Positions 31,392-64,000 of a stretch of DNA of 64,000 nucleotides are shown piece after piece. Position 1 is the first letter of the stretch; each line of letters begins with the position of its first letter. The stretch spans positions 80,384 to 144,383 of the forward strand of contig JAQUKY010000001.1 in assembly GCA_028718805.1 (NCBI GenBank), in the 5' to 3' direction. The notes beneath the pieces are model-generated. The model was not told the origin of the DNA. It made no database searches and saw nothing but the letters and a program-made list of their open reading frames with translations. A program made the position numbers and the translations under genes. This DNA comes from Candidatus Nanoarchaeia archaeon (GTDB lineage Archaea > Nanobdellota > Nanobdellia > Pacearchaeales > GW2011-AR1).

Positions 31392-32129
31392 TTACAATTT
31401 TCCCTCCAAAACCTGTTTAGTTGTAATGAGTTTGGCACCAGCTTTTGACATTTCTTCAAGTGCTTTATTTCCAAATTCAGGATCTACTTTTCCTTCAAAA
31501 TTTATATTAACAGCTTCTATTGCATCAGTTACCACATAAATCTCCAATGGTTTTTGATATTTGTCTCTAATTTCCGCCATTTTCAGAACTGCTGCTTTAT
31601 CACAATAGTCTGTTGCAAAACCATTTACAATGACTCTTTGTAGGCCTTTGTCAAGCAATTTTTTAAATGCTGGCTCAAAATTAGGATTTGTCCCAACATT
31701 ATAGTTCTGCTTTTCAAAAATTAAGTGCATCTTATTTTTTTCTGCAGCTTCTGTATACTTCTCTAGTTCATTGTTAGTATAAATCTTAATTCCCAGTTCA
31801 GGCCCATCCTTTGCTCTTATATAAATGTCTTTTTGAGGTTCTAGTTCTTTTAGCCTTAACTGACCCCAGGTTCCATTCATGCAATGATCATCAAATACCC
31901 CTCCCTGGTTTCTTATTAATTCTGCATCTTCGTAAAAATGCCTGTCTACTGACCCGAGAAACAGATAGTTGTTATCAATTGCATTTTTATGTATTGCAAA
32001 TATATTCGGGAGTCTTTCTTCTGCACCATAAGGCAATGCTGTTTTTGGCTTGTTAGCTCTTACAAACAATGCTCCTTCTCTTACACTAAAGTCGTACTGA
32101 ACATCTGTTTCATAAATTGCAGTTTTCAT
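31392..32129 (-). CDS. pncA: Isochorismatase-family nicotinamidase
   Basis: N-terminal Asp (ETDVQYDF), metal-site context SVDRHF...DDHC, and nucleophile Cys in GFATDYCDKAAV. Confidence 0.7.
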   Translation of the reverse strand: MKTAIYETDVQYDFSVREGALFVRANKPKTALPYGAEERLPNIFAIHKNAIDNNYLFLGSVDRHFYEDAELIRNQGGVFDDHCMNGTWGQLRLKELEPQKDIYIRAKDGPELGIKIYTNNELEKYTEAAEKNKMHLIFEKQNYNVGTNPNFEPAFKKLLDKGLQRVIVNGFATDYCDKAAVLKMAEIRDKYQKPLEIYVVTDAIEAVNINFEGKVDPEFGNKALEEMSKAGAKLITTKQVLEGKL

Positions 32130-32130
32130 T

Positions 32131-33324
32131 TTATTTTATACCTCCTAATCTTAGTTTTAGTTTTGGATTTGGATTGTATTGTCTTCCGACTTTTGCAATC
32201 GGAACAAAATGTTCTGGATCTTCTCCAACAGCAACTATGTCCATTTTTGATGCCCTTGATTCGAAAATCTGGCCTACACCAAGACCTTCAAATAGTTTTG
32301 TTCCTAACAATTTCTCTGCTCTTACAAATGCCTCGACCTTTTTTGGTTCTGCAAAACCACTTGATAACCAGATTTGCAAATTTTTGTAATTATTTTCATC
32401 AAGAGCTTTTCTCATGGCATAAGTCCCTGTTACAGTCACTCCTCTGTCAAACCAGTATTTCTCATCTTCTTTAGGAATGATTACTTTTTTTCCAACTAAT
32501 CTCTCAAGTTTCTTTTCATCTTTAAATTCTAAAGCTCCTTCTCCGGCATTTTCACCACATGTATCTATTCTTGGGCCATGAAGCCTGTTTTTCAGAGCTT
32601 TGGCTGTATCTAAAGTGTCTGTAATTTCTTTATTTCTGTAATCACATAAAATTATTCTTGGAACTTCTGGTTCAATGTGTTTATCAAAAGCAATCATTGT
32701 TTCTGAAACAGCTCTTTCGTAGCCATATTTTGCAGCCATTATATTTTCTAGAACGTGAGGAGTTGTTCCCATTCCTTTTTTCCCTGCTGTTGCTGCACCA
32801 ATATCTGTTGAAGCGCTTGTTGCACCTGCTTCAAAAGCTGCTTTTGTAATTGCTGCATCTTCATCATATCTCCAGTGCCTTGCACCAAAATAAGAAATAA
32901 ACCTTCCTTCTGCAGCTTTCACAACGTACCTCATATTTTTTCTTACTAAGTCTAAATCTATTCCGTGCTTATCGTTCGCTTTTGTAGTTTCTGCTGCTAA
33001 AACTCCTAGATACATTGTTTCTAAATCCACAATGTCTTGGATTGGAGCCTCAATAAGCATAAGTGTTTCTTTCGGCTGATAAGATTCTCCTTCATTTAGT
33101 GCATAAACTCTTCCTTTATGAGCAACTAAATTGCTGTATTTATCAAGAATTGCAAGAGCTTCATTTATTCCATAAACTTTTCCAGGCCCTTTTCTTATAA
33201 ATATCTGTGCTCTTACCCAAGGATTGATACCTTCTGCTTCAAGTATTTTCTTTGCTCTTAGAAAATATTTGTCAATATAAGAAGCATATTCATCAGGCAG
33301 ATTAAATTTTTTTGTTTGTGCCAT
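32131..33324 (-). CDS. pncB: Nicotinate phosphoribosyltransferase (archaeal/type II PRTase-like)
   Basis: GTTPHVL, ILCDYR, PRIDTCGE, IWLSSGF and LGVGQIF align in order with conserved blocks of archaeal NAPRTases as I recall them. Confidence 0.75.
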   Translation of the reverse strand: MAQTKKFNLPDEYASYIDKYFLRAKKILEAEGINPWVRAQIFIRKGPGKVYGINEALAILDKYSNLVAHKGRVYALNEGESYQPKETLMLIEAPIQDIVDLETMYLGVLAAETTKANDKHGIDLDLVRKNMRYVVKAAEGRFISYFGARHWRYDEDAAITKAAFEAGATSASTDIGAATAGKKGMGTTPHVLENIMAAKYGYERAVSETMIAFDKHIEPEVPRIILCDYRNKEITDTLDTAKALKNRLHGPRIDTCGENAGEGALEFKDEKKLERLVGKKVIIPKEDEKYWFDRGVTVTGTYAMRKALDENNYKNLQIWLSSGFAEPKKVEAFVRAEKLLGTKLFEGLGVGQIFESRASKMDIVAVGEDPEHFVPIAKVGRQYNPNPKLKLRLGGIK

Positions 33325-45390: not shown

Positions 45391-45672
45391 ATGTTTCTTA
45401 TGAGAGGTCAATATTGTTTATCAGAAAATCCTAATTGTGCCTTCTATTTAAAGCATAAAGAAGATAATTCTAAAATTTGGGTTAATGGAGGAGAAATTTA
45501 TTGCTGTAATAAGCAGTGTGTTAGTTTTGACTCTAAAGGAACTCCTATACAATTTGATGAATTTGACAATTCATTGTGCGGGTGTGTTGAGGGAGCAGTT
45601 ATTGGTAATGGGATCCCTGTTGATGTATTGGGAAGAAAGATTGATTTAGAAAAGGTTGTTGGCTTAAAATAA
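45391..45672 (+). CDS. Hypothetical Cys-rich protein (93 aa)
   Basis: Nine Cys residues; no motif recognised. Confidence 0.35.
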   Translation: MFLMRGQYCLSENPNCAFYLKHKEDNSKIWVNGGEIYCCNKQCVSFDSKGTPIQFDEFDNSLCGCVEGAVIGNGIPVDVLGRKIDLEKVVGLK

Positions 45673-45693: not shown

Positions 45694-46035
45694 TTATTCG
45701 TAAGTTATTTTTGGTTCATCAATTTTGCCGAATTTTCTCTGAAACATTTTGAAAAAAAGTTTAATTTTTAATCCATCGTACGAAAGATGGAATTTTAGTG
45801 GGTTATCGCTATCTTCTTTATTTGGAGTATATTTTATTCTAGCGCTAGCGATTAATCCGGAAAAACCATGATAATTATCTGTGTCTACAAAGGATTTACC
45901 AAAAAGTGATAAAACATAGGCACATCGTTTTGCCAAATTTTCCAAAGTCCTGGCTTCTTTTGCATTAAGAGAACCATAAATATCAAGATCAGTGAGATAG
46001 TTCTCGTCTTCTAATGTAACTTTATCAATTTTCAT
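45694..46035 (-). CDS. Hypothetical protein (113 aa), last gene of the KS operon
   Basis: Overlaps the upstream gene by 11 nt. Confidence 0.45.
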   Translation of the reverse strand: MKIDKVTLEDENYLTDLDIYGSLNAKEARTLENLAKRCAYVLSLFGKSFVDTDNYHGFSGLIASARIKYTPNKEDSDNPLKFHLSYDGLKIKLFFKMFQRKFGKIDEPKITYE

Positions 46036-46768
46036 TCTTATTATAAATCTTGTTTCTTACAGCAAAATAATGATCTCTGCTTGCTTTTTTCATCTTGTTT
46101 ATATCTCCTCTTCCTATTATTATCTTCCAACCAAGGGTATCTGCTAATGCTTCATAGTATTCATCCATTGAATCAGACATTTGCTCACAATATTCTGTGT
46201 ATTCTGTTTCTGTCAAAGTATTTCTTACCAAATTTTCGTAAGTTTCTGAGACATCTTTGTTTTCATATTGACTATTCATTTTAGAAAGTATTTTTTTATG
46301 ACACTCTGCTGCTATTTTAACAGTCTTAGCTCTTGCCTTGATTACTTCTTTGTCAAGAGGATTAGTGTGCCCTTTATAAAAATTTAAATCATCCTGCCCT
46401 ATTTGTTTTGAAACAGCCAGATATTCTTTTTCGGGGATTTCATTTGGTTCTTGACAATATTTTTCAGCTAAACTAATTGAATAGGATTTCATTTTAGCTA
46501 AATGTTCATAGGTCTTTTTTAGTCCATATTTTTCTATTTGTTGTTTAAATGGCGTATTGTCTTTACATTCATTTACAAAAATAATGCTGTCTTCTAATGT
46601 TGCAGCTCTAATTAATTCAGGAGCAGATAGTTTTTCTTGTTTAATGGTTTGCTGGGTCTGTACTGCCTGATTTATCTTTTGTTCAAGCCCTCTTGCCTCA
46701 GAGATATTTGTCGTTAATGCTAATACTGCTGTAACAAATCCAATTTCCAGATATTTTTTAAAATTCAT
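46025..46768 (-). CDS. Hypothetical secreted/anchored helical protein (247 aa)
   Basis: Signal/TM IGFVTAVLALTTNISEA. One nt after the KS stop. Confidence 0.45.
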   Translation of the reverse strand: MNFKKYLEIGFVTAVLALTTNISEARGLEQKINQAVQTQQTIKQEKLSAPELIRAATLEDSIIFVNECKDNTPFKQQIEKYGLKKTYEHLAKMKSYSISLAEKYCQEPNEIPEKEYLAVSKQIGQDDLNFYKGHTNPLDKEVIKARAKTVKIAAECHKKILSKMNSQYENKDVSETYENLVRNTLTETEYTEYCEQMSDSMDEYYEALADTLGWKIIIGRGDINKMKKASRDHYFAVRNKIYNKNEN

Positions 46769-46769
46769 T

Positions 46770-48173
46770 CTATGTTACATCTCCTAAAACTAAAGCAGAA
46801 TTATATCCCCCAAAACCCATAGAGATTACAAGGGAATTTCTTATATTCCTTTCTACTGCTTTATTGGGGGTGTAGTTTAAATCACATTCAGGGTCTGGAT
46901 TGTCTAAATTAATTGTTGGGGGAACAAGATTATTTTGTACTGCAAGAGCACTTATTATCGCTTCTATTCCTCCTACTGCTCCTATTGAATGTCCTGTCAT
47001 TGATTTTGTTGAGCTTATATTTAACTTGTTAGTATGTTCTTCAAACACCTCTTTAATAACTTTAGTTTCAACAAGATCACAGGTTTTGGTTGCAGTTCCG
47101 TGGGTATTGATATAATCAATTTCATTTATGTTTAAACCAGACATATTGATTGTTTTTTTTATCGCTTTTTTTAAGTACTCTCCTTCTGGATGAAGCATAA
47201 CCATTTGTGGGTTTGCATCACTGGATTGACTATACCCTTTTATTTTAGCATAAATTTTAGCATTTCTTTTTAATGCACATTCTTTTTCTTCTAAAACAAT
47301 TATCCCTGCTCCTTCTGAAATAGCAAATCCATCTCTGTCAATGCAGTATGGTTTGGGTTTTGTTCTCGAGATTACTCCTAAATTAGATAGGCAGGATATT
47401 GCCTGCAGAGTAATTGGTGCTTCAGAACCTCCTGCAATTGCAGTATTAGAACGACCTTCCTTAATTGTGTAATAGGCTTGTCCTATTGCGTCAAGTCCTG
47501 AAGAACAAGCGGTATTTATACATATCGAAGACCCATGAAAGTTAAAAAAACTAGAAATTTTTGCAGGAATTGCATAACTTTTAAAATCTATGGTATTTGG
47601 TGGAGTAAATTGGTAAAGATTTCCAAATCTTTTATTAAGAAAGGTTATAAATTCTTCGAGCTTGTCTTCTTGCAATAGGCATTTGTACTTTACAAATTCT
47701 CTTTTTGTTTTAAAAAAATGAAATGGTCTAACCAATTTATTAAATTCTTCAAAGGTTTTTTTCATAACTGTCTGGATAACTACTTTTACAACCTGCTCAT
47801 TTGATTGAATCGGTTCTTCTGCATTTCCCATAAAAACGTCAATATCATTGTTTTCTTTGTTATATTCCAAAACTGCATTTTCTAATGCTAATCTTGTTCC
47901 AAGAACAGCAAATTGTATGGATTTGTCATCTGTTTTGACTTTCCCATAATTTTTTTTATTAAATTTCCCTTGATTTACATCTTGTAAAAAATAATTATCT
48001 AGATTAAAATCTTTGATTTCACTTCCCTTAATTTCCCCATAACCTCTATCTCTTACTATTGGAAGAGTCTCAAAAAAAGATTTTCCATTAACTATGTTCT
48101 CCCAAAAATCTCTTATTCCAATTCCATTGGGTGTTACTATTCCTAGCCCTGTTATTACAACTTCTCGGTTCAT
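46770..48173 (-). CDS. Beta-ketoacyl synthase, FabF/KAS-II type (Cys-His-His)
   Basis: VVITGLGIVTPNG, active-site NTACSSGLDAIG, THGTATKTCD, GHSIGAVGG, GFGGYNSALVL. About 60 extra residues precede the active-site Cys. Confidence 0.85.
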   Translation of the reverse strand: MNREVVITGLGIVTPNGIGIRDFWENIVNGKSFFETLPIVRDRGYGEIKGSEIKDFNLDNYFLQDVNQGKFNKKNYGKVKTDDKSIQFAVLGTRLALENAVLEYNKENNDIDVFMGNAEEPIQSNEQVVKVVIQTVMKKTFEEFNKLVRPFHFFKTKREFVKYKCLLQEDKLEEFITFLNKRFGNLYQFTPPNTIDFKSYAIPAKISSFFNFHGSSICINTACSSGLDAIGQAYYTIKEGRSNTAIAGGSEAPITLQAISCLSNLGVISRTKPKPYCIDRDGFAISEGAGIIVLEEKECALKRNAKIYAKIKGYSQSSDANPQMVMLHPEGEYLKKAIKKTINMSGLNINEIDYINTHGTATKTCDLVETKVIKEVFEEHTNKLNISSTKSMTGHSIGAVGGIEAIISALAVQNNLVPPTINLDNPDPECDLNYTPNKAVERNIRNSLVISMGFGGYNSALVLGDVT

Positions 48174-49408
48174 TTTTTAAACATGCTCCCCCTTTCCAAA
48201 TCTTCAAGGGAATTTATGGCTTTTTTAAGACAATTTTCTCTTGCTTTATCTCCTCCGACAAATTTTAGATGTTTTTCAGCAATATCTTTGCAATAACTGC
48301 ATGAATTTGCATTTTTTTTCTCATTTTTCAACTCTGAGATATCACAAATGTGCTCGCTGCAATCTTTACCTTTGATAAAAGGTTCTATAAATCCATCTAG
48401 ATCTTTGTTGTTTAAATAAACTTGTGCTGGAAAAATTGCTTCTTGCATATTTCTCATTTTTTGTGCCCTTGCTTTTCCTAAAATAGCTCCTTTAATAAAA
48501 GGGGTTCTATTTACTTGTGTGAATTCATTGTTTCTGTAATTTAGAATATCAAAAAGATTTCCATCATAAGATTTTTCTGCATAAGCTTTAACAACTCTTA
48601 CTAGCCAATCAGTAGGTCTTGAACGTTCTGTTAATTTTAAAGTTAAATTTGTCTTTCCAATTTTATCGCATAGCTCTTCATAATAATGAACATCTTCTGG
48701 TCTTATCCAGTCTGCTGCAATAAATTTTCCAGAGCTTTCAAATTTTTCTTTTCCGCAGTTCAAAGAATAAAAATCCAAGAAAAATCCTCCTGATTCATGA
48801 TTTGATTGAGAAGAGTGAGCAAGAGCATTTGCATGATTTGTTCTGTAAATACAATCGTGCAAACAAGTGTTATTGGCAATCAATCTTAAATTTAAATCAG
48901 TTGATTTTAATGCCTGTTCTAACTTTTTAAAATTTCTGTTAAATCCGTAATGTAATGTTAATTCGTCTGCTCCTAATTCTTCCCAGGCCCTTATTCTTTC
49001 CAGACTGTCTATATCGTTATATACTGAAACAGAGATTTCTAAATCTGGCGCAGTATTTTTTGCAAGTTTTAGCATGAATGGGCTTCCGACAGTTACAATG
49101 TCTGCTCCTGTGTCTTGGATATGTTTTATAAAATCCCTTATTTGTAAATTTGTTTTTCCAGAGAATTCTCTGTTATCTGAGCATAAAGCATTAAAAAGAT
49201 AATTAAACTTAATTCCATGTTCATGTGCAGTTTTAATATGCCCCTTTAGTTGTTTCTGTGAGATATTGGGTATTGTAAAGCTTGGTCTTCCTCCGCCAAT
49301 GATATGTTCGCTCAGCATGCCATACAAACACTTGACAATTCCAAAAGGCGCAACTTTTTCTATTAATTTATTATCAAAATTTGTAGCTAAATCATACCTC
49401 ATTTCCAT
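48170..49408 (-). CDS. Peptidase-U32-family-like TIM-barrel / Fe-S protein
   Basis: The block order HEHGIKFNYLFNA, DTGADIVTVGSPFML, ISVSVYNDIDS and ELGADELTL matches U32 proteins. NNTCLHDCIYRTNH sits at the signature position, with further C-terminal Cys residues (CSEHIC, CSYC). Confidence 0.55.
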   Translation of the reverse strand: MEMRYDLATNFDNKLIEKVAPFGIVKCLYGMLSEHIIGGGRPSFTIPNISQKQLKGHIKTAHEHGIKFNYLFNALCSDNREFSGKTNLQIRDFIKHIQDTGADIVTVGSPFMLKLAKNTAPDLEISVSVYNDIDSLERIRAWEELGADELTLHYGFNRNFKKLEQALKSTDLNLRLIANNTCLHDCIYRTNHANALAHSSQSNHESGGFFLDFYSLNCGKEKFESSGKFIAADWIRPEDVHYYEELCDKIGKTNLTLKLTERSRPTDWLVRVVKAYAEKSYDGNLFDILNYRNNEFTQVNRTPFIKGAILGKARAQKMRNMQEAIFPAQVYLNNKDLDGFIEPFIKGKDCSEHICDISELKNEKKNANSCSYCKDIAEKHLKFVGGDKARENCLKKAINSLEDLERGSMFKK

Positions 49409-49523
49409 ACCCGTTATTCTTCTTAAGTGATTATAAAGATTATTATTATCTATAGAATATATTGTTTAATTTATGTTGTTCAAGAACAAGCTTGTTTTTA
49501 AATAAAAGAATTTTGAAATAAAC

Positions 49524-49883
49524 ATGAAAGGGTTGAGAAATGCAATAGCGGGTCTTGGGTTGGCAGGCTTGCTTGCTGTTTCTGGGTGCGGCATAACTAT
49601 CCCCCTTAAGCCGGCCCCGTATATTCCTCGCGATTTAAGGGGGACAGCACAAGCGCTTATACTTGAAAAGAGAGCAGATGAGCTTGCTGGAAGCAGTTCT
49701 TTAGATGATTTGGGGGATGCTGTTAAAATTTATGGAAGTGTGGGCAAGCTGGAAAAGATGGATAAAGTGCTAGATGAGATTGCGGGTATGAGAGGCGAGG
49801 ATGAAGATGAAGTAATCAATTATATTGATATTGGAAGAAGATGTAATGAAATGTATGAAAGAATTGATAAAAAGAAAAAATAA
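49524..49883 (+). CDS. Putative lipoprotein (119 aa)
   Basis: Lipobox-like LLAVSGCG after a signal peptide. Confidence 0.45.
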   Translation: MKGLRNAIAGLGLAGLLAVSGCGITIPLKPAPYIPRDLRGTAQALILEKRADELAGSSSLDDLGDAVKIYGSVGKLEKMDKVLDEIAGMRGEDEDEVINYIDIGRRCNEMYERIDKKKK

Positions 49884-49916: not shown

Positions 49917-50510
49917 ATGTTACTGGAGAAAATTTCAAAAGGAGTGATTTGTGCGGGATTTGGATTAGCTGTCTTATGCTCTTCTTGTGATAGTATTGAC
50001 GGGCAACCTATTGGGAGAATGGGTTCTTATGCAAGCGCAACAATGGCAACAAGTTTTCAAGGTCTGAAAGATTTAGGGCAGCATAGTTCTTCATCAGAAG
50101 GCAATGGGCAGGTGTATTGCTGTAGATGCGGGCATATTGATATTGCTCATTTAAGAAAATCTGCTGATTGGACCAGATATCTTGGAGAAAAATCCTATAG
50201 TCATTTAATGAATAATGATGCTAAATTTTCATTTTCATTTAAAGAACCTTCTCAATATTTTGTTAGTATTGATTATCCAAAGAACTGGGGAAGTTTGAAA
50301 TCAGAAGATAAAGAAAAAATTTCAAAAGAGGTTTCTGTTGGGCTTGGACAGTATTTTTCTTATACAGGGGTTACCTGGCACGAGATGCTTACCTGGTTTG
50401 GGTACAAATCAACAGGATTTTATACAGAATTCCCATCAGCTTTTTCGTGGGAAGATGGATTTCCAAAAAATTATGGGATACATAAGAAAAGAGGCTGTAG
50501 AAAAATATGA
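49917..50510 (+). CDS. Putative lipoprotein (DUF4056-like?), C-terminus possibly frameshifted
   Basis: LAVLCSSCD signal/lipobox. GQVYCCRCGHIDIAHLRKSADWTRYL and SAFSWED blocks. The overlapping +1 ORF continues to 50532. Confidence 0.45.
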   Translation: MLLEKISKGVICAGFGLAVLCSSCDSIDGQPIGRMGSYASATMATSFQGLKDLGQHSSSSEGNGQVYCCRCGHIDIAHLRKSADWTRYLGEKSYSHLMNNDAKFSFSFKEPSQYFVSIDYPKNWGSLKSEDKEKISKEVSVGLGQYFSYTGVTWHEMLTWFGYKSTGFYTEFPSAFSWEDGFPKNYGIHKKRGCRKI

Positions 50511-61152: not shown

Positions 61153-62163
61153 TTATCTCTTGCTCTTTGATAGCCCTTCAAGGCTTTGTTGATATAATCT
61201 CTCTTTTTCCTGTTTTGTATTTGTAATATTATCTTCTATTTCTTTTAACTCTGCTTTTTTTGTGTTTATGTTAGAATCTATCTTATATATTTCCTCATTT
61301 TTTTCTTTTATAGTCTTTTCTAGACCCTCAAAATTTGCCCTTTGATAAGCTGCTTTTCTCGTTAAATCCCCTAATTCATAATTTTTTGTTTCTATATTTT
61401 TTTCTAGTACAGAAACCTCCCCTATCTTATTTTTATATGCTTCTGTTGCCCTATGTAAATTTTGTTCTGTTGTGTAAACTTCTGTTTGCAGATTTCCTAA
61501 GGTATTCTGCTTGTTTTTAATATCTTTTTCAAGAACAGGTATTTGCGTCTTTAGCGAATTGTAATGGCTAAAATTAAGATCATATTTCTTGAGGCTATTT
61601 TTGTAAGTGTTTCCTGCAAATGCAATTACTAATGCAAGTGCTATTGTTGCAAAGATTTTTGCAGGGCGATTTTTTTTCATTTTTTCTCCCCTGTCTTTTA
61701 TCTTCTGCAGCTCTTCTCTTTCTAAGTATAAGAGGTTTGGATTTGCTTTTTTTAATGCTTTCCTAAAACAGGTGTCTGTTTTTTCTGAGTCTGACCTTAT
61801 AAGAACAAGCCCATCTTTTGTTCTTTTATCGTCTGCTATATAAAGGGCTGCTCTGTCTATTATTTCCGCTAATGGCCTGCCGGAATTCAGCATGTTCTTT
61901 ATATCGTTTCTGCTATTTGCCTGGGTGATCATTTCAAGAAATCCATCTGCGATTATCACGCTCTTTATTCCTCTTTGTCCCTCTTCTATCAGCCTTTTTT
62001 TAGCTTCTTCATCAGATACCTGTTCTTTGAGAAGTGCGGTTAGGGCTTCATAAATAGGGTGTATTATTCCTTCTTCTGTTGAGAAATTAGAAGATTTTTT
62101 GGAATATAATCCTGCTATTTTTTCTGTTAAATTATTTTTCTCCATTTTTCTCACATCCAGCAA
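61153..62163 (-). CDS. Hypothetical bitopic protein: N-terminal globular domain, one TM, long coiled coil
   Basis: TM IFATIALALVIAFAG at about residue 170, followed by about 150 aa of heptad-rich sequence. Its start overlaps the E1-like gene's end. Confidence 0.5.
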   Translation of the reverse strand: MLDVRKMEKNNLTEKIAGLYSKKSSNFSTEEGIIHPIYEALTALLKEQVSDEEAKKRLIEEGQRGIKSVIIADGFLEMITQANSRNDIKNMLNSGRPLAEIIDRAALYIADDKRTKDGLVLIRSDSEKTDTCFRKALKKANPNLLYLEREELQKIKDRGEKMKKNRPAKIFATIALALVIAFAGNTYKNSLKKYDLNFSHYNSLKTQIPVLEKDIKNKQNTLGNLQTEVYTTEQNLHRATEAYKNKIGEVSVLEKNIETKNYELGDLTRKAAYQRANFEGLEKTIKEKNEEIYKIDSNINTKKAELKEIEDNITNTKQEKERLYQQSLEGLSKSKR

Positions 62164-63337
62164 GGCAGTTTCTTAATGTCAGAACTTTTTCAATCCCTCT
62201 GTTAGAATTGTATTTGATAGTAGCTGTGTCTTCATGCATTTTGTTTATCTGGTTTACTAGAAGAGCCCCGGTTATCTGGTTTGAGATTATTGTTGTAGGC
62301 TCATAACAACTGCCAACTTCTTCTTTATCTTTTGTCTGGCTTAGCATTCCAAAACCCTGGCAGTCAAGGCAGGCTGTTTTTCCTGGAATATAAGGCATTA
62401 CACTTCCTTGTATGAAAGATGTCCCAGAATTTAAGAGAGGGGTTTTTGTTTTATAGGAAAGCCAGTCCAGATAATATCTTGCTTTTGCGTTATCAACACA
62501 GCTTAAAATAATCTCATAATATTTTTCTAATTTGTAGTTCTCATCAACCTTCCTAACTATGCCTTTAAAATTTCCTAATTTTGATAACTTTTCTGCCATT
62601 ACTTCTGCTTTATATTTTCCAACTGAATTGTAAAAAAGAATCTGCCTGTTTAGATTAGATTCCTCAACGTTGTCAAAATCAATTACATCAACATCTGCCC
62701 CTGCCATTGCCAGCCCTATGCCTGCAAATGTGCCTATTGCACCTGCCCCAACCAATAAAACTTTCTTGTTTATTTTATCCTCTAAATTACTCGCTGAGAG
62801 CCTGGAAAGGGTTTTATCATCTGGGAGAGGCATTATTCTTTTTCTTATTTCATCTGCTGTTATCCCTGAGGCAATTATTGCATTTATAATCCCATTGTTT
62901 TTTTCATTTTTATGAAAATTGATAATCTCGTCTAAACTTTCATTTTTTTTAATAACTTTAATCTTATAGGATTCTTTAGAGCAGGATGCAGAGATAGCTT
63001 GAATGCTGTTTTTTATTGCATATCCAATACAAATTTGCTTTTCTCTGCCTTCAGAAGCGTCTACAAAAAAATCTGGTTTTCCTATATAATCCTTTGCAAG
63101 TTCTTCATTTAAAACTTCTCCTTGTATTTCTTCAAATTCAGTATCCGGGTTCATATTATAGAAATCTAAAAATTGCAGGCTGTTTTCTCCTATCCTTGTT
63201 ATTTTTCCGAAACCCATTGCTGTTAAGTCTGCAAGAATAAAAGAAGCAAGATTATTTGAGCCAGTTACAACTATGTGTGAATTTTGCAGATTTTCCTGCT
63301 TCCATCCTTTTGCCAGTTCCTGCTTTGCATATCTCAT
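62132..63337 (-). CDS. E1-like protein with tandem ThiF/MoeB-type domains (degenerate N, active-looking C)
   Basis: C half: VLLVGAGAIGTFAGIGLAMAGADVDVIDFDNVEESNLNRQ, SCVDNAKAR, CLDC...CLAGC. N half: RYAKQE...NSHIVVTGSNNLASFILADLTAMGFGKITRI, with ThiF-like layout but no Gly loop or NRQ. Confidence 0.8.
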   Translation of the reverse strand: MRYAKQELAKGWKQENLQNSHIVVTGSNNLASFILADLTAMGFGKITRIGENSLQFLDFYNMNPDTEFEEIQGEVLNEELAKDYIGKPDFFVDASEGREKQICIGYAIKNSIQAISASCSKESYKIKVIKKNESLDEIINFHKNEKNNGIINAIIASGITADEIRKRIMPLPDDKTLSRLSASNLEDKINKKVLLVGAGAIGTFAGIGLAMAGADVDVIDFDNVEESNLNRQILFYNSVGKYKAEVMAEKLSKLGNFKGIVRKVDENYKLEKYYEIILSCVDNAKARYYLDWLSYKTKTPLLNSGTSFIQGSVMPYIPGKTACLDCQGFGMLSQTKDKEEVGSCYEPTTIISNQITGALLVNQINKMHEDTATIKYNSNRGIEKVLTLRNCLAGCEKNGEK

Positions 63338-63343
63338 TTGAAA

Positions 63344-64000
63344 TCATCTGGAGAAAATCCCGAGCAAGCCAGGTTTTTTTACTTTTTGTCTTATCTCTTC
63401 TCTTATCCCTTCTTCTGAAAATTTAATATCATCTTCTGTTTCTATTATCTCCAGCTTGATTGGTTTTTTTGTTATGTGGCTTTTTTCGCAGACAGTGCAT
63501 ATCTCTTTTAATGCAACTTCTGCATAAAATTTTCCTTCGCTTGCCACAAGTGAGTATGCATACCCCAAGGATTTTAGTTTTTGGGGCTCAGTTTCTTTAA
63601 ATGTCAGTGTATGCTCTCCGAGAGGCATGAAAATTGTTTTCCCTCCTATGTTAAAATAGAATTTGTTGTCTTTAGTATGCATATAATTTATTTTTGGATT
63701 AATGATTTTTCTTTCTACAGTATACGTGTTAAAGGGCTTTGTTGATTTTATTTCAAGTTCAACTCCTCCTTCTCTAATGAGGAATCTGTTTCTTTCAAAT
63801 TCGTTTTTTACGGGATCGTTTCCTATTAGGATTATTTCCCTGTTTCCTGCTATTGAATGAACAAGTTTTTCTAAATTTCTGTCATCTGTTCCAGAATGCC
63901 AGGCGCCCATGCCATGATGGCTGTGCCAACAGCCTATTGCATCATATCCAAGATTTTCAATTTCTGCCTTGGATTTGAATGCACCTTCCGGGCCAATTGA
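63344..64000 (-). CDS. JAB/MPN+ (JAMM) metalloprotease with C-terminal extension; 5' end outside the window
   Basis: The frame stays open to position 64000. JAMM motif WHSHHGMGAWHSGTD (HxH-x7-S-xx-D), followed by about 185 aa of unassigned sequence. Confidence 0.8.
   Translation of the reverse strand, partial: SIGPEGAFKSKAEIENLGYDAIGCWHSHHGMGAWHSGTDDRNLEKLVHSIAGNREIILIGNDPVKNEFERNRFLIREGGVELEIKSTKPFNTYTVERKIINPKINYMHTKDNKFYFNIGGKTIFMPLGEHTLTFKETEPQKLKSLGYAYSLVASEGKFYAEVALKEICTVCEKSHITKKPIKLEIIETEDDIKFSEEGIREEIRQKVKKPGLLGIFSR

Follow-up and report, generated by a model that had tools for sequence, protein, structure and literature searches.

Characterized proteins of the U32 superfamily, such as UbiU/UbiV, TrhP and RlhA, are components of O2-independent hydroxylases that carry 4Fe-4S clusters (PMC6747719, PMC10990095, PMC11574389). 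The clusters are bound through CX6CX15CX3/4C motifs or the CXnCX12CX3C arrangement of UbiV (PMC6747719), and reviews to late 2024 give ubiquinone and RNA as the only substrates of U32 oxidases (PMC10990095, PMC11574389). Here, we describe a locus in a 64,000-nt stretch of DNA (the window) from a Candidatus Nanoarchaeia archaeon (contig JAQUKY010000001.1, positions 80,384 to 144,383), in which the gene for a divergent U32-like protein, U32L, overlaps the gene for a FabF-like β-ketoacyl synthase (KS). FabF-type condensing enzymes and acyl carrier protein (ACP) are generally regarded as missing from archaea, and DPANN archaea are regarded as nearly devoid of biosynthetic capacity. Our best reading, to which we give a probability of about one half, is that the two genes form a translationally coupled, horizontally mobile cassette encoding a minimal, ACP-less condensing enzyme and an O2-independent Fe-S oxidase or hydroxylase.

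Phenolic-lipid and quinone operons provide a second point of comparison. In Streptomyces griseus SrsABC and in the operons for mycobacterial polyketide quinones, a type III polyketide synthase (PKS) and a methyltransferase are joined by a hydroxylase as the third activity, which in these known systems is an O2-dependent flavoprotein. Like these operons, the window pair compactly combines a condensing enzyme with what would, by analogy, be an oxygen-inserting tailoring enzyme, but it has a FabF-type KS instead of a type III PKS and no methyltransferase. Type II PKS and aryl-polyene clusters share with the window a stand-alone FabF-lineage KS as the core biosynthetic enzyme; the window differs in having no chain-length factor (CLF), ACP, dehydratase or acyltransferase. 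The ACP-independent fatty-acid synthesis (FAS) of archaea, which combines a thiolase/DUF35 pair with ketoreductase (KR), dehydratase and enoyl reductase, is different again. As the original prediction for this locus had stated, such genes are missing nearby: a Pfam scan of 36 window open reading frames (ORFs), namely the operon, all neighbors between ~31 and 64 kb and several others, matched neither a thiolase family above cutoff nor DUF35.

The U32L–KS pair is a conserved unit

Four tightly spaced minus-strand ORFs fill positions 45694–49408 of the window.

48170–49408, minus strand: U32L, putative U32-like Fe-S TIM-barrel protein, 412 aa, first gene of the cassette (PF01136 and fold match)
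46770–48173, minus strand: KS, FabF-like β-ketoacyl synthase, 467 aa (PF00109 and PF02801)
46025–46768, minus strand: p247, 247 aa, with an N-terminal signal-like segment; small family, accessory cluster member
45694–46035, minus strand: p113, 113 aa, an orphan ORF with no relative; gene status uncertain

Spacing down the series is −4 nt for U32L/KS (an ATGA overlap), +1 nt for KS/p247 and −11 nt for p247/p113, which is compatible with one transcription unit. The locus had been predicted to be a four-gene operon, and the ORFs, their coordinates and their tight packing stand, as do the 4-nt overlap and the 412-aa length of U32L. As a conserved four-gene unit, however, the operon does not hold up. 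The conserved core is genes 1 and 2 only: the pair is universal among the related loci, p247 is found in a subset of them and p113 is an orphan.

The U32L-then-KS order recurs in at least 12 distinct loci, designated here by L numbers, and the proposed pairing is in this sense a conserved gene neighborhood.

L001, L088, L089, L092 and L094: pair in DPANN contigs from ENA and JGI
L008, L009, L011 and L030: pair in GTDB genomes labeled Pacearchaeota, Nanoarchaeota or Woesearchaeota
L007: pair in an 80%-identical locus filed under a candidate phyla radiation (CPR) bin
L002/L003 and L010: pair in Planctomycete contigs
L071: pair on a bacterial contig

The ATGA overlap is identical in seven of 12 pairs, and the pairwise identities of U32L and KS co-vary (r = 0.84; Mantel test, 0/5000 permutations). 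In L088, the pair stands alone amid unrelated genes, beside those for archaeal ribosomal proteins L1/L10/P1 and for Taw1, and two genes therefore suffice as a unit. The pair in L089 lies beside genes for RadA and archaeal-type aminoacyl-tRNA synthetases, and that in L071 is flanked by bacterial RecA, SSB, S6, SHMT and YchF genes. In the Planctomycete loci (L002:6642-9398 and L010:1634-4390), the pair has a GC content of 54–57% within surrounding DNA of ~66–70% GC, and it nests beside a Nanoarchaeota copy in both the U32L and the KS trees, features that point to recent joint import of the two genes alone from a DPANN-like donor. Bacterial ancestry holds for both genes, given that every other U32L protein comes from bacteria and that FabF is the sister group of the KS. 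The pairing and the KS insertions described below are specific to a DPANN-type clade, which diversified within DPANN and was then re-exported to bacteria.

Two loci deserve separate mention. In L089 (10001–12684), U32L clusters with clade B, at 62% identity to L088, but the KS with clade A, at 56% to the window, and the halves of the cassette seem to have recombined at least once. Of all loci, L007 (JAFCCB010000007.1) is nearest to the window, with 80% and 73% identity. It was deposited under a ‘Candidatus Dojkabacteria’ (CPR) bin; it is syntenic with the Pacearchaeota contig L008 and is probably mis-binned.

The bacterial ancestry of both genes, together with the filing of L007 under a CPR bin, could be taken to mean that bacterial contamination or chimeric assembly brought the operon into an archaeal bin, a concern that accompanied the original prediction. 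GC content is flat, however, at 30–35% throughout the window (0.322 for the U32L–KS pair versus 0.328 for the rest), and the same contig carries archaeal genes for a family-B DNA polymerase (PolB), FEN1 (XPG_N/XPG_I), the small subunit of RFC, an RPA-like OB protein, TrmB and Tyw2, with the PolB, FEN1, RFC and RPA-like genes only 3–12 kb from the operon. Moreover, the same pair adjoins archaeal genes in L088 and L089. Contamination is effectively excluded, and we rate it the least probable of all alternatives.

A FabF-type ketosynthase with two insertions

The KS matches both condensing-enzyme domains of FabF/KAS II (PF00109, E 4e-36; PF02801, E 2e-31), and among PDB entries it matches B. subtilis FabF best (4LS6, E 5e-74). 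Its motifs TAC223SSG, H358GTAT, K390, GH395SIGA and GFGGY (GFGG453-456) include every KS motif that had been quoted for it. On alignment the activity-critical residues are in place: the Cys-His-His set C223, H358 and H395, the catalytic K390 and the GFGG gating loop correspond to C164, H304, H341, K336 and F401 of E. coli FabF and are kept in 27–28 of 28 clade members. The enzyme is of FabF type and not a thiolase, as Thiolase_N scores 21 bits, under its cutoff of 26.4. About 28 database proteins of 461–476 aa are 50–73% identical to the KS; outside this clade, identity falls sharply to ~38%, for the ordinary 411–418-aa FabF of Bacillota and other bacteria.

The clade departs from FabF/KAS II in several ways. 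The GSGIGG segment of FabF is replaced by GNAEE or GNANG, and two clade-defining insertions, both upstream of Cys223, were located in FabF alignments.

47952–47987, minus strand: KS insert 1, residues 63–74, +12 aa relative to FabF
47574–47756, minus strand: KS insert 2 region, residues 140–200, over which +49 aa are spread

The ~60 extra residues noticed earlier before the active-site Cys are thus real but sit in two places. Insert 1 is found in all insert-bearing KSs. Insert 2, in which the conserved positions are F, G, P and Y, falls inside the FabF ‘RRVSPF/FVPMM’ segment, which we take to contribute to the acyl pocket and the dimer interface. An insert serving as a built-in ACP was considered and ruled out: there is no conserved Ser or DS(L) phosphopantetheine-attachment motif, and the insert is therefore not a fused carrier domain.

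In a neighbor-joining tree built on insert-free columns, the insert-bearing KSs are monophyletic (50 of 50 bootstraps) and sister to housekeeping FabF, and the DPANN KS clade is unrelated to the KSs of type II PKS or aryl-polyene clusters. A common origin of the DPANN KS and the bacterial KSs that neighbor U32L genes was also rejected, since the tree places the type II, aryl-polyene-like and L051 KSs on other branches.

Neither a profile search for ACP (E<=10) nor phmmer searches with E. coli FabD, FabH, PlsX and AcpP found a match anywhere in the 64-kb window or at 12 related loci, so the reported lack of ACP and fab genes near the KS extends to its relatives. Each DPANN-type locus has one KS gene only, and no CLF or ACP was found in any of them. 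At three of six positions that we presume to be basic ACP-docking residues in FabF, the KS is uncharged, a comparison of little weight given that the residue list is provisional and the alignment uncertain in this region.

An alternative is that the KS is the elongating enzyme of an acquired bacterial-type FAS whose ACP and Fab proteins are encoded elsewhere, with U32L unrelated or loosely accessory. Bacterial fatty-acid synthesis genes do occur in some Woesearchaeota, according to Castelle et al. (PMC8204110), and both the closest relatives outside the clade, at ~38% identity, and the best PDB match are FabF proteins, the former housekeeping enzymes of Bacillota. The KS nevertheless scores only 335.2 bits against the fabF equivalog TIGR03150 (cutoff 493.75), is likewise under cutoff for NF005589 (324.8 versus 387 bits), and belongs to a distinct, monophyletic clade marked by the two inserts. 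It has none of the expected FAS partners in the window or the 12 loci and is obligately paired, strictly co-inherited, translationally coupled and jointly transferred with U32L, including into a Planctomycete that presumably owned a FAS already. We consider a housekeeping FAS role unlikely. The best-supported interpretation, drawn from sequence, is a catalytically intact, remodeled FabF-type condensing enzyme that is predicted to be active.

A divergent U32-superfamily barrel with invariant cysteines

U32L scores 38.1 bits against PF01136, above the 22.4 cutoff, with the match confined to residues 89–150 of 412. An AF2 model built with 27 homologs (pLDDT 88, pTM 0.89) has alternating strands and helices, and its top Foldseek match is 5D88, the U32 protein Mk0906 (E 5e-11; TM (target) 0.76), the other matches being generic TIM barrels. 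A sequence profile searched against PDB sequences returned 5D88 as the single entry (E 7e-11). Mk0906 is the only solved U32 protein.

The Cys motifs reported for U32L are all present (NNTC182LHDC186, C350SEHIC355 and C370SYC373) and fall within the larger pattern C76...C182X3C186X31C218 plus C350X4C355X14C370X2C373. Across 91 homologs from three clades, C182, C186, C218, C350, C370, C373, H192, R236, P237 and D239 are invariant (91/91), C355 is kept in 90 and C76 in 79. Because C76 and C182/C186 follow predicted β-strands, they are placed at the catalytic face of the barrel. The combination of one distant Cys with a cluster of three recalls the CXnCX12CX3C motif of UbiV (PMC6747719), whereas the C-terminal CX4CX14CX2C, which looks from its sequence like a ribbon- or rubredoxin-type metal site, is an extra feature relative to UbiU/UbiV, TrhP and RlhA. 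With a U32-superfamily barrel and conserved cysteines able to bind Fe-S in common with those proteins, Fe-S binding by U32L is plausible.

Source annotations name such proteins ‘U32 family peptidase’ or ‘collagenase-like PrtC’, and the PF01136 match would fit a collagenase-like U32 peptidase whose adjacency to the KS is meaningless. Adjacency in at least 12 distinct loci, with gene overlap and co-variation, speaks against this view, as do the seven near-invariant cysteines, the lack of a signal peptide and the presence of homologs inside biosynthetic clusters. A peptidase role is highly improbable and, in effect, excluded.

U32L homologs in bacterial biosynthetic clusters

Full-length bacterial homologs of U32L (33–45% identity) are found consistently in biosynthetic clusters, which independently supports the earlier proposal that U32L is a tailoring enzyme of acyl or polyketide products and not a protease. 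In Clostridium felsineum, Desulfoluna, Sporomusaceae, Lacrimispora, Hungatella, Ruminococcus and Pseudoramibacter, U32L directly follows nonribosomal peptide synthetase (NRPS)/PKS megasynthases and is accompanied by thioesterase and phosphopantetheinyl transferase genes. Elsewhere it accompanies type II KS/CLF/ACP genes (L043 and L066) or lies in an aryl-polyene-like cluster with ApeI/ApeP dehydratases, an LpxL-type acyltransferase, ACP, KSs, B12-radical S-adenosylmethionine (SAM) enzymes and GT1. Type II PKS or aryl-polyene clusters of Bacillota that carry U32L homologs are L043, L066 and L090, and GT1 glycosyltransferases are common to L090 and the extended DPANN clusters.

In environmental metagenomes, U32L most commonly sits in a three-gene cassette together with a type III PKS and a UbiE/COQ5-type methyltransferase. 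The cassette was Pfam-verified in L082 (10001–15757) and recurs in L067, L084 and >20 metagenome loci; FabF/ACP/short-chain dehydrogenase/reductase (SDR) genes lie upstream of the type III PKS–U32L cassette in L163 and L165. The arrangement looks like an anaerobic phenolic-lipid or quinone pathway. It mirrors anaerobic ubiquinone synthesis, in which UbiU/V act alongside UbiE/UbiG (PMC6747719), and the association of U32L with UbiE-type methyltransferases and aromatic polyketide-forming enzymes is a likeness to characterized U32 proteins. With crude single-sequence probes, which give a lower bound, a condensing enzyme was found within 10 kb of U32L at 71 of 133 usable loci. A literature search on U32 proteins in NRPS, PKS or type III PKS clusters, or on a DPANN KS, returned no report of the U32L subfamily, the term ‘U32’ being confounded with Amycolatopsis strain U32.

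The type III PKS–U32L–UbiE cassette also appears in L118 and in many of the loci L127–L171, and its Bdellovibrionales version carries YceI and an MMPL transporter as well. Tandem U32L paralogs are present in many bacteria (L039, L051, L054, L059, L068, L074, L121, L125 and L158), frequently separated or flanked by B12-binding radical SAM genes, an organization that recalls the UbiU/UbiV heterodimer.

Proposed mechanism and its alternatives

We propose that the KS, descended from a bacterial FabF-like ancestor, would join a malonyl-type thioester to an acyl thioester by decarboxylative Claisen condensation. The KS inserts would sit at the acyl-pocket/dimer-interface loop of FabF and beside the ACP-docking patch. 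As no carrier protein is encoded nearby, the enzyme may use CoA- or host-derived thioesters and need no dedicated ACP, or it may dock U32L instead. U32L would probably hold one Fe-S cluster at the mouth of the barrel, through C182, C186 and C218 with either C76 or H192, and probably a second metal at the C-terminal Cys4 site (C350, C355, C370 and C373). The analogy to UbiU/UbiV, TrhP and RlhA, together with the genomic company of its bacterial homologs, leads us to suggest that U32L oxidizes, and most likely hydroxylates, the substrate or product of the KS without O2. Such a pathway would yield a small, oxygenated molecule of polyketide or phenolic-lipid-like type. In longer clusters, this product could be further reduced, glycosylated and handled extracellularly by the SDR, GT1, secreted p247 and lipobox proteins, and the secreted, lipobox and GT1 genes of these extended clusters would fit an envelope product, as originally suggested.

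U32L and the KS could also cooperate without U32L being a hydroxylase. Its Fe-S-dependent step might be a different one (a reduction, a dehydration or ring chemistry, for example), or it might act as a structural or electron-transfer partner that binds the KS inserts in the manner of a CLF or carrier. The Cys pattern of U32L does differ from that of characterized U32 oxidases, the KS inserts are restricted to the clade and originated along with the pairing, and the frequent B12-radical-SAM neighbors and tandem paralogs of bacterial U32L fit several anaerobic chemistries. Every characterized U32 member, however, is linked to hydroxylation (PMC11574389), and without a hydroxylating U32L the commonest bacterial context would miss that step on the route from phenol to methoxyquinone. 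We judge such a role doubtful.

A number of results weigh against a cassette of ACP-less KS and U32-type hydroxylase. First, U32L is a very divergent U32-superfamily TIM barrel that lies outside every characterized U32 hydroxylase family, so that the hydroxylase role is one of analogy. U32L scores 19.8 bits against the NCBIfam TrhP model, for which the cutoff is 534; the canonical CX6CX15CX3/4C motif is absent; hhalign gave no alignment to E. coli UbiV (0.3% probability); and the match to UbiU (52% probability, 110 columns) covers only the N-terminal half of the barrel. The U32L Cys ligands could not be mapped onto UbiU/UbiV, as hhalign produced no usable alignment around the cysteines. Second, direct in vitro hydroxylase activity has not been reported even for UbiU/V, TrhP or RlhA (PMC10990095), and these enzymes need prephenate, for which no shikimate-pathway gene was seen in the window. 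Third, no condensing enzyme was detected by the single-sequence probes at 62 of the 133 U32L loci. Fourth, the KSs beside bacterial U32L genes are not relatives of the DPANN KS, so that the partnership arose independently and its substrate need not be analogous. Finally, an ACP-independent FabF-type KS would be unusual, and an ACP gene could lie beyond the 64-kb window.

If the proposed cassette is correct, Claisen-condensation chemistry would gain a new minimal architecture, namely a KS that lacks a carrier protein and has its own Fe-S partner, and the locus would encode a rare specialized-metabolite pathway in DPANN. More broadly, U32L ties the locus to more than a hundred bacterial clusters, mostly of anaerobes, with NRPS, PKS and type III PKS genes. 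The oxygen-inserting tailoring enzymes known to us require O2. U32-type chemistry, if it operates in these clusters, would explain how strict anaerobes oxygenate natural products and would extend prephenate/U32 hydroxylation from ubiquinone and RNA to secondary metabolism. In a still broader and distinctly tentative extension, the U32L subfamily would be a widespread, so far unrecognized group of O2-independent tailoring oxidases/hydroxylases for the thiotemplate and polyketide products of anaerobes, and the DPANN cassette a minimal ACP-independent pathway to a redox-active phenolic or quinone-like lipid, mobile from archaea into Planctomycetes. Although built from known superfamilies, the finding has an implication for anaerobic natural-product chemistry that can be tested and may prove broad, and the type III PKS–U32L–methyltransferase cassette offers a tractable bacterial test system.

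Accessory genes and flanking features

Neither p247 nor p113 has a Pfam or NCBIfam match. Homologs of p247 are encoded directly after the KS in L001 (280 bits) and farther downstream in L089 (136) and L007 (130); the family, of ~250 aa, is small, with 5 matches in 5.8e9 proteins and 33 representatives in 1.84e9. The protein combines its N-terminal signal-like segment with an all-α domain (AF2 pLDDT 80) for which a Foldseek search of the PDB found no match (E>=1). Relatives of p113 were absent from 171 fetched loci and from a metagenome scan.

Longer DPANN clusters add genes for a secreted β-sandwich-like protein of ~250 aa, a lipobox metallophosphoesterase, a protein of ~430–450 aa, an SDR/KR, DUF2334, Amidohydro_2 and a GT1 glycosyltransferase. 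The ~430–450-aa protein (L089:15023-16384, L007:14623-15909 and L008:14447-15727) is conserved and has no Pfam match; by eye, it shows kinase-like motifs (GH..SVF…VLKI and IIIDYE) and a hydrophobic C-terminal part.

Two further features lie immediately upstream of the operon.

49431–49437, minus strand: TATA-like TTTATAA, ~22 nt upstream of the U32L ATG, read by eye
49524–49883, plus strand: p119, a small lipobox-type protein, divergently transcribed and in the same position in the closest relatives

TTTATAA may be an archaeal TATA-like element, in which case the mRNA would be leaderless or have a short leader. Matches to p119 by phmmer occupy the same divergent upstream position in L007 (48 bits) and L008 (20 bits). 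It is one of two small proteins with a bacterial-style lipobox (…LAVSGC… and …LCSSC…) that adjoin the operon, the other being the DUF4056 product of 49917–50510, a member of a bacterial lipoprotein family; such proteins are unexpected for a DPANN archaeon. At the other end, a Cys-rich 93-aa ORF (45391–45672), with no Pfam match, converges on the operon, the two stop codons being only 21 nt apart. In the window, scans with Rfam and for tRNAs gave a single tRNA-Lys and nothing close to the operon.

Farther away, an isochorismatase-domain (PncA-like) gene lies beside a QRPTase_N-domain (NAPRTase-like) gene at 31392–33324, a pair that suggests NAD salvage and is unrelated to chorismate or prephenate supply. 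At the end of the window (62132–64000), a ThiF-family E1-like gene adjoins a JAB-domain gene, as in archaeal ubiquitin-like (SAMP) systems.

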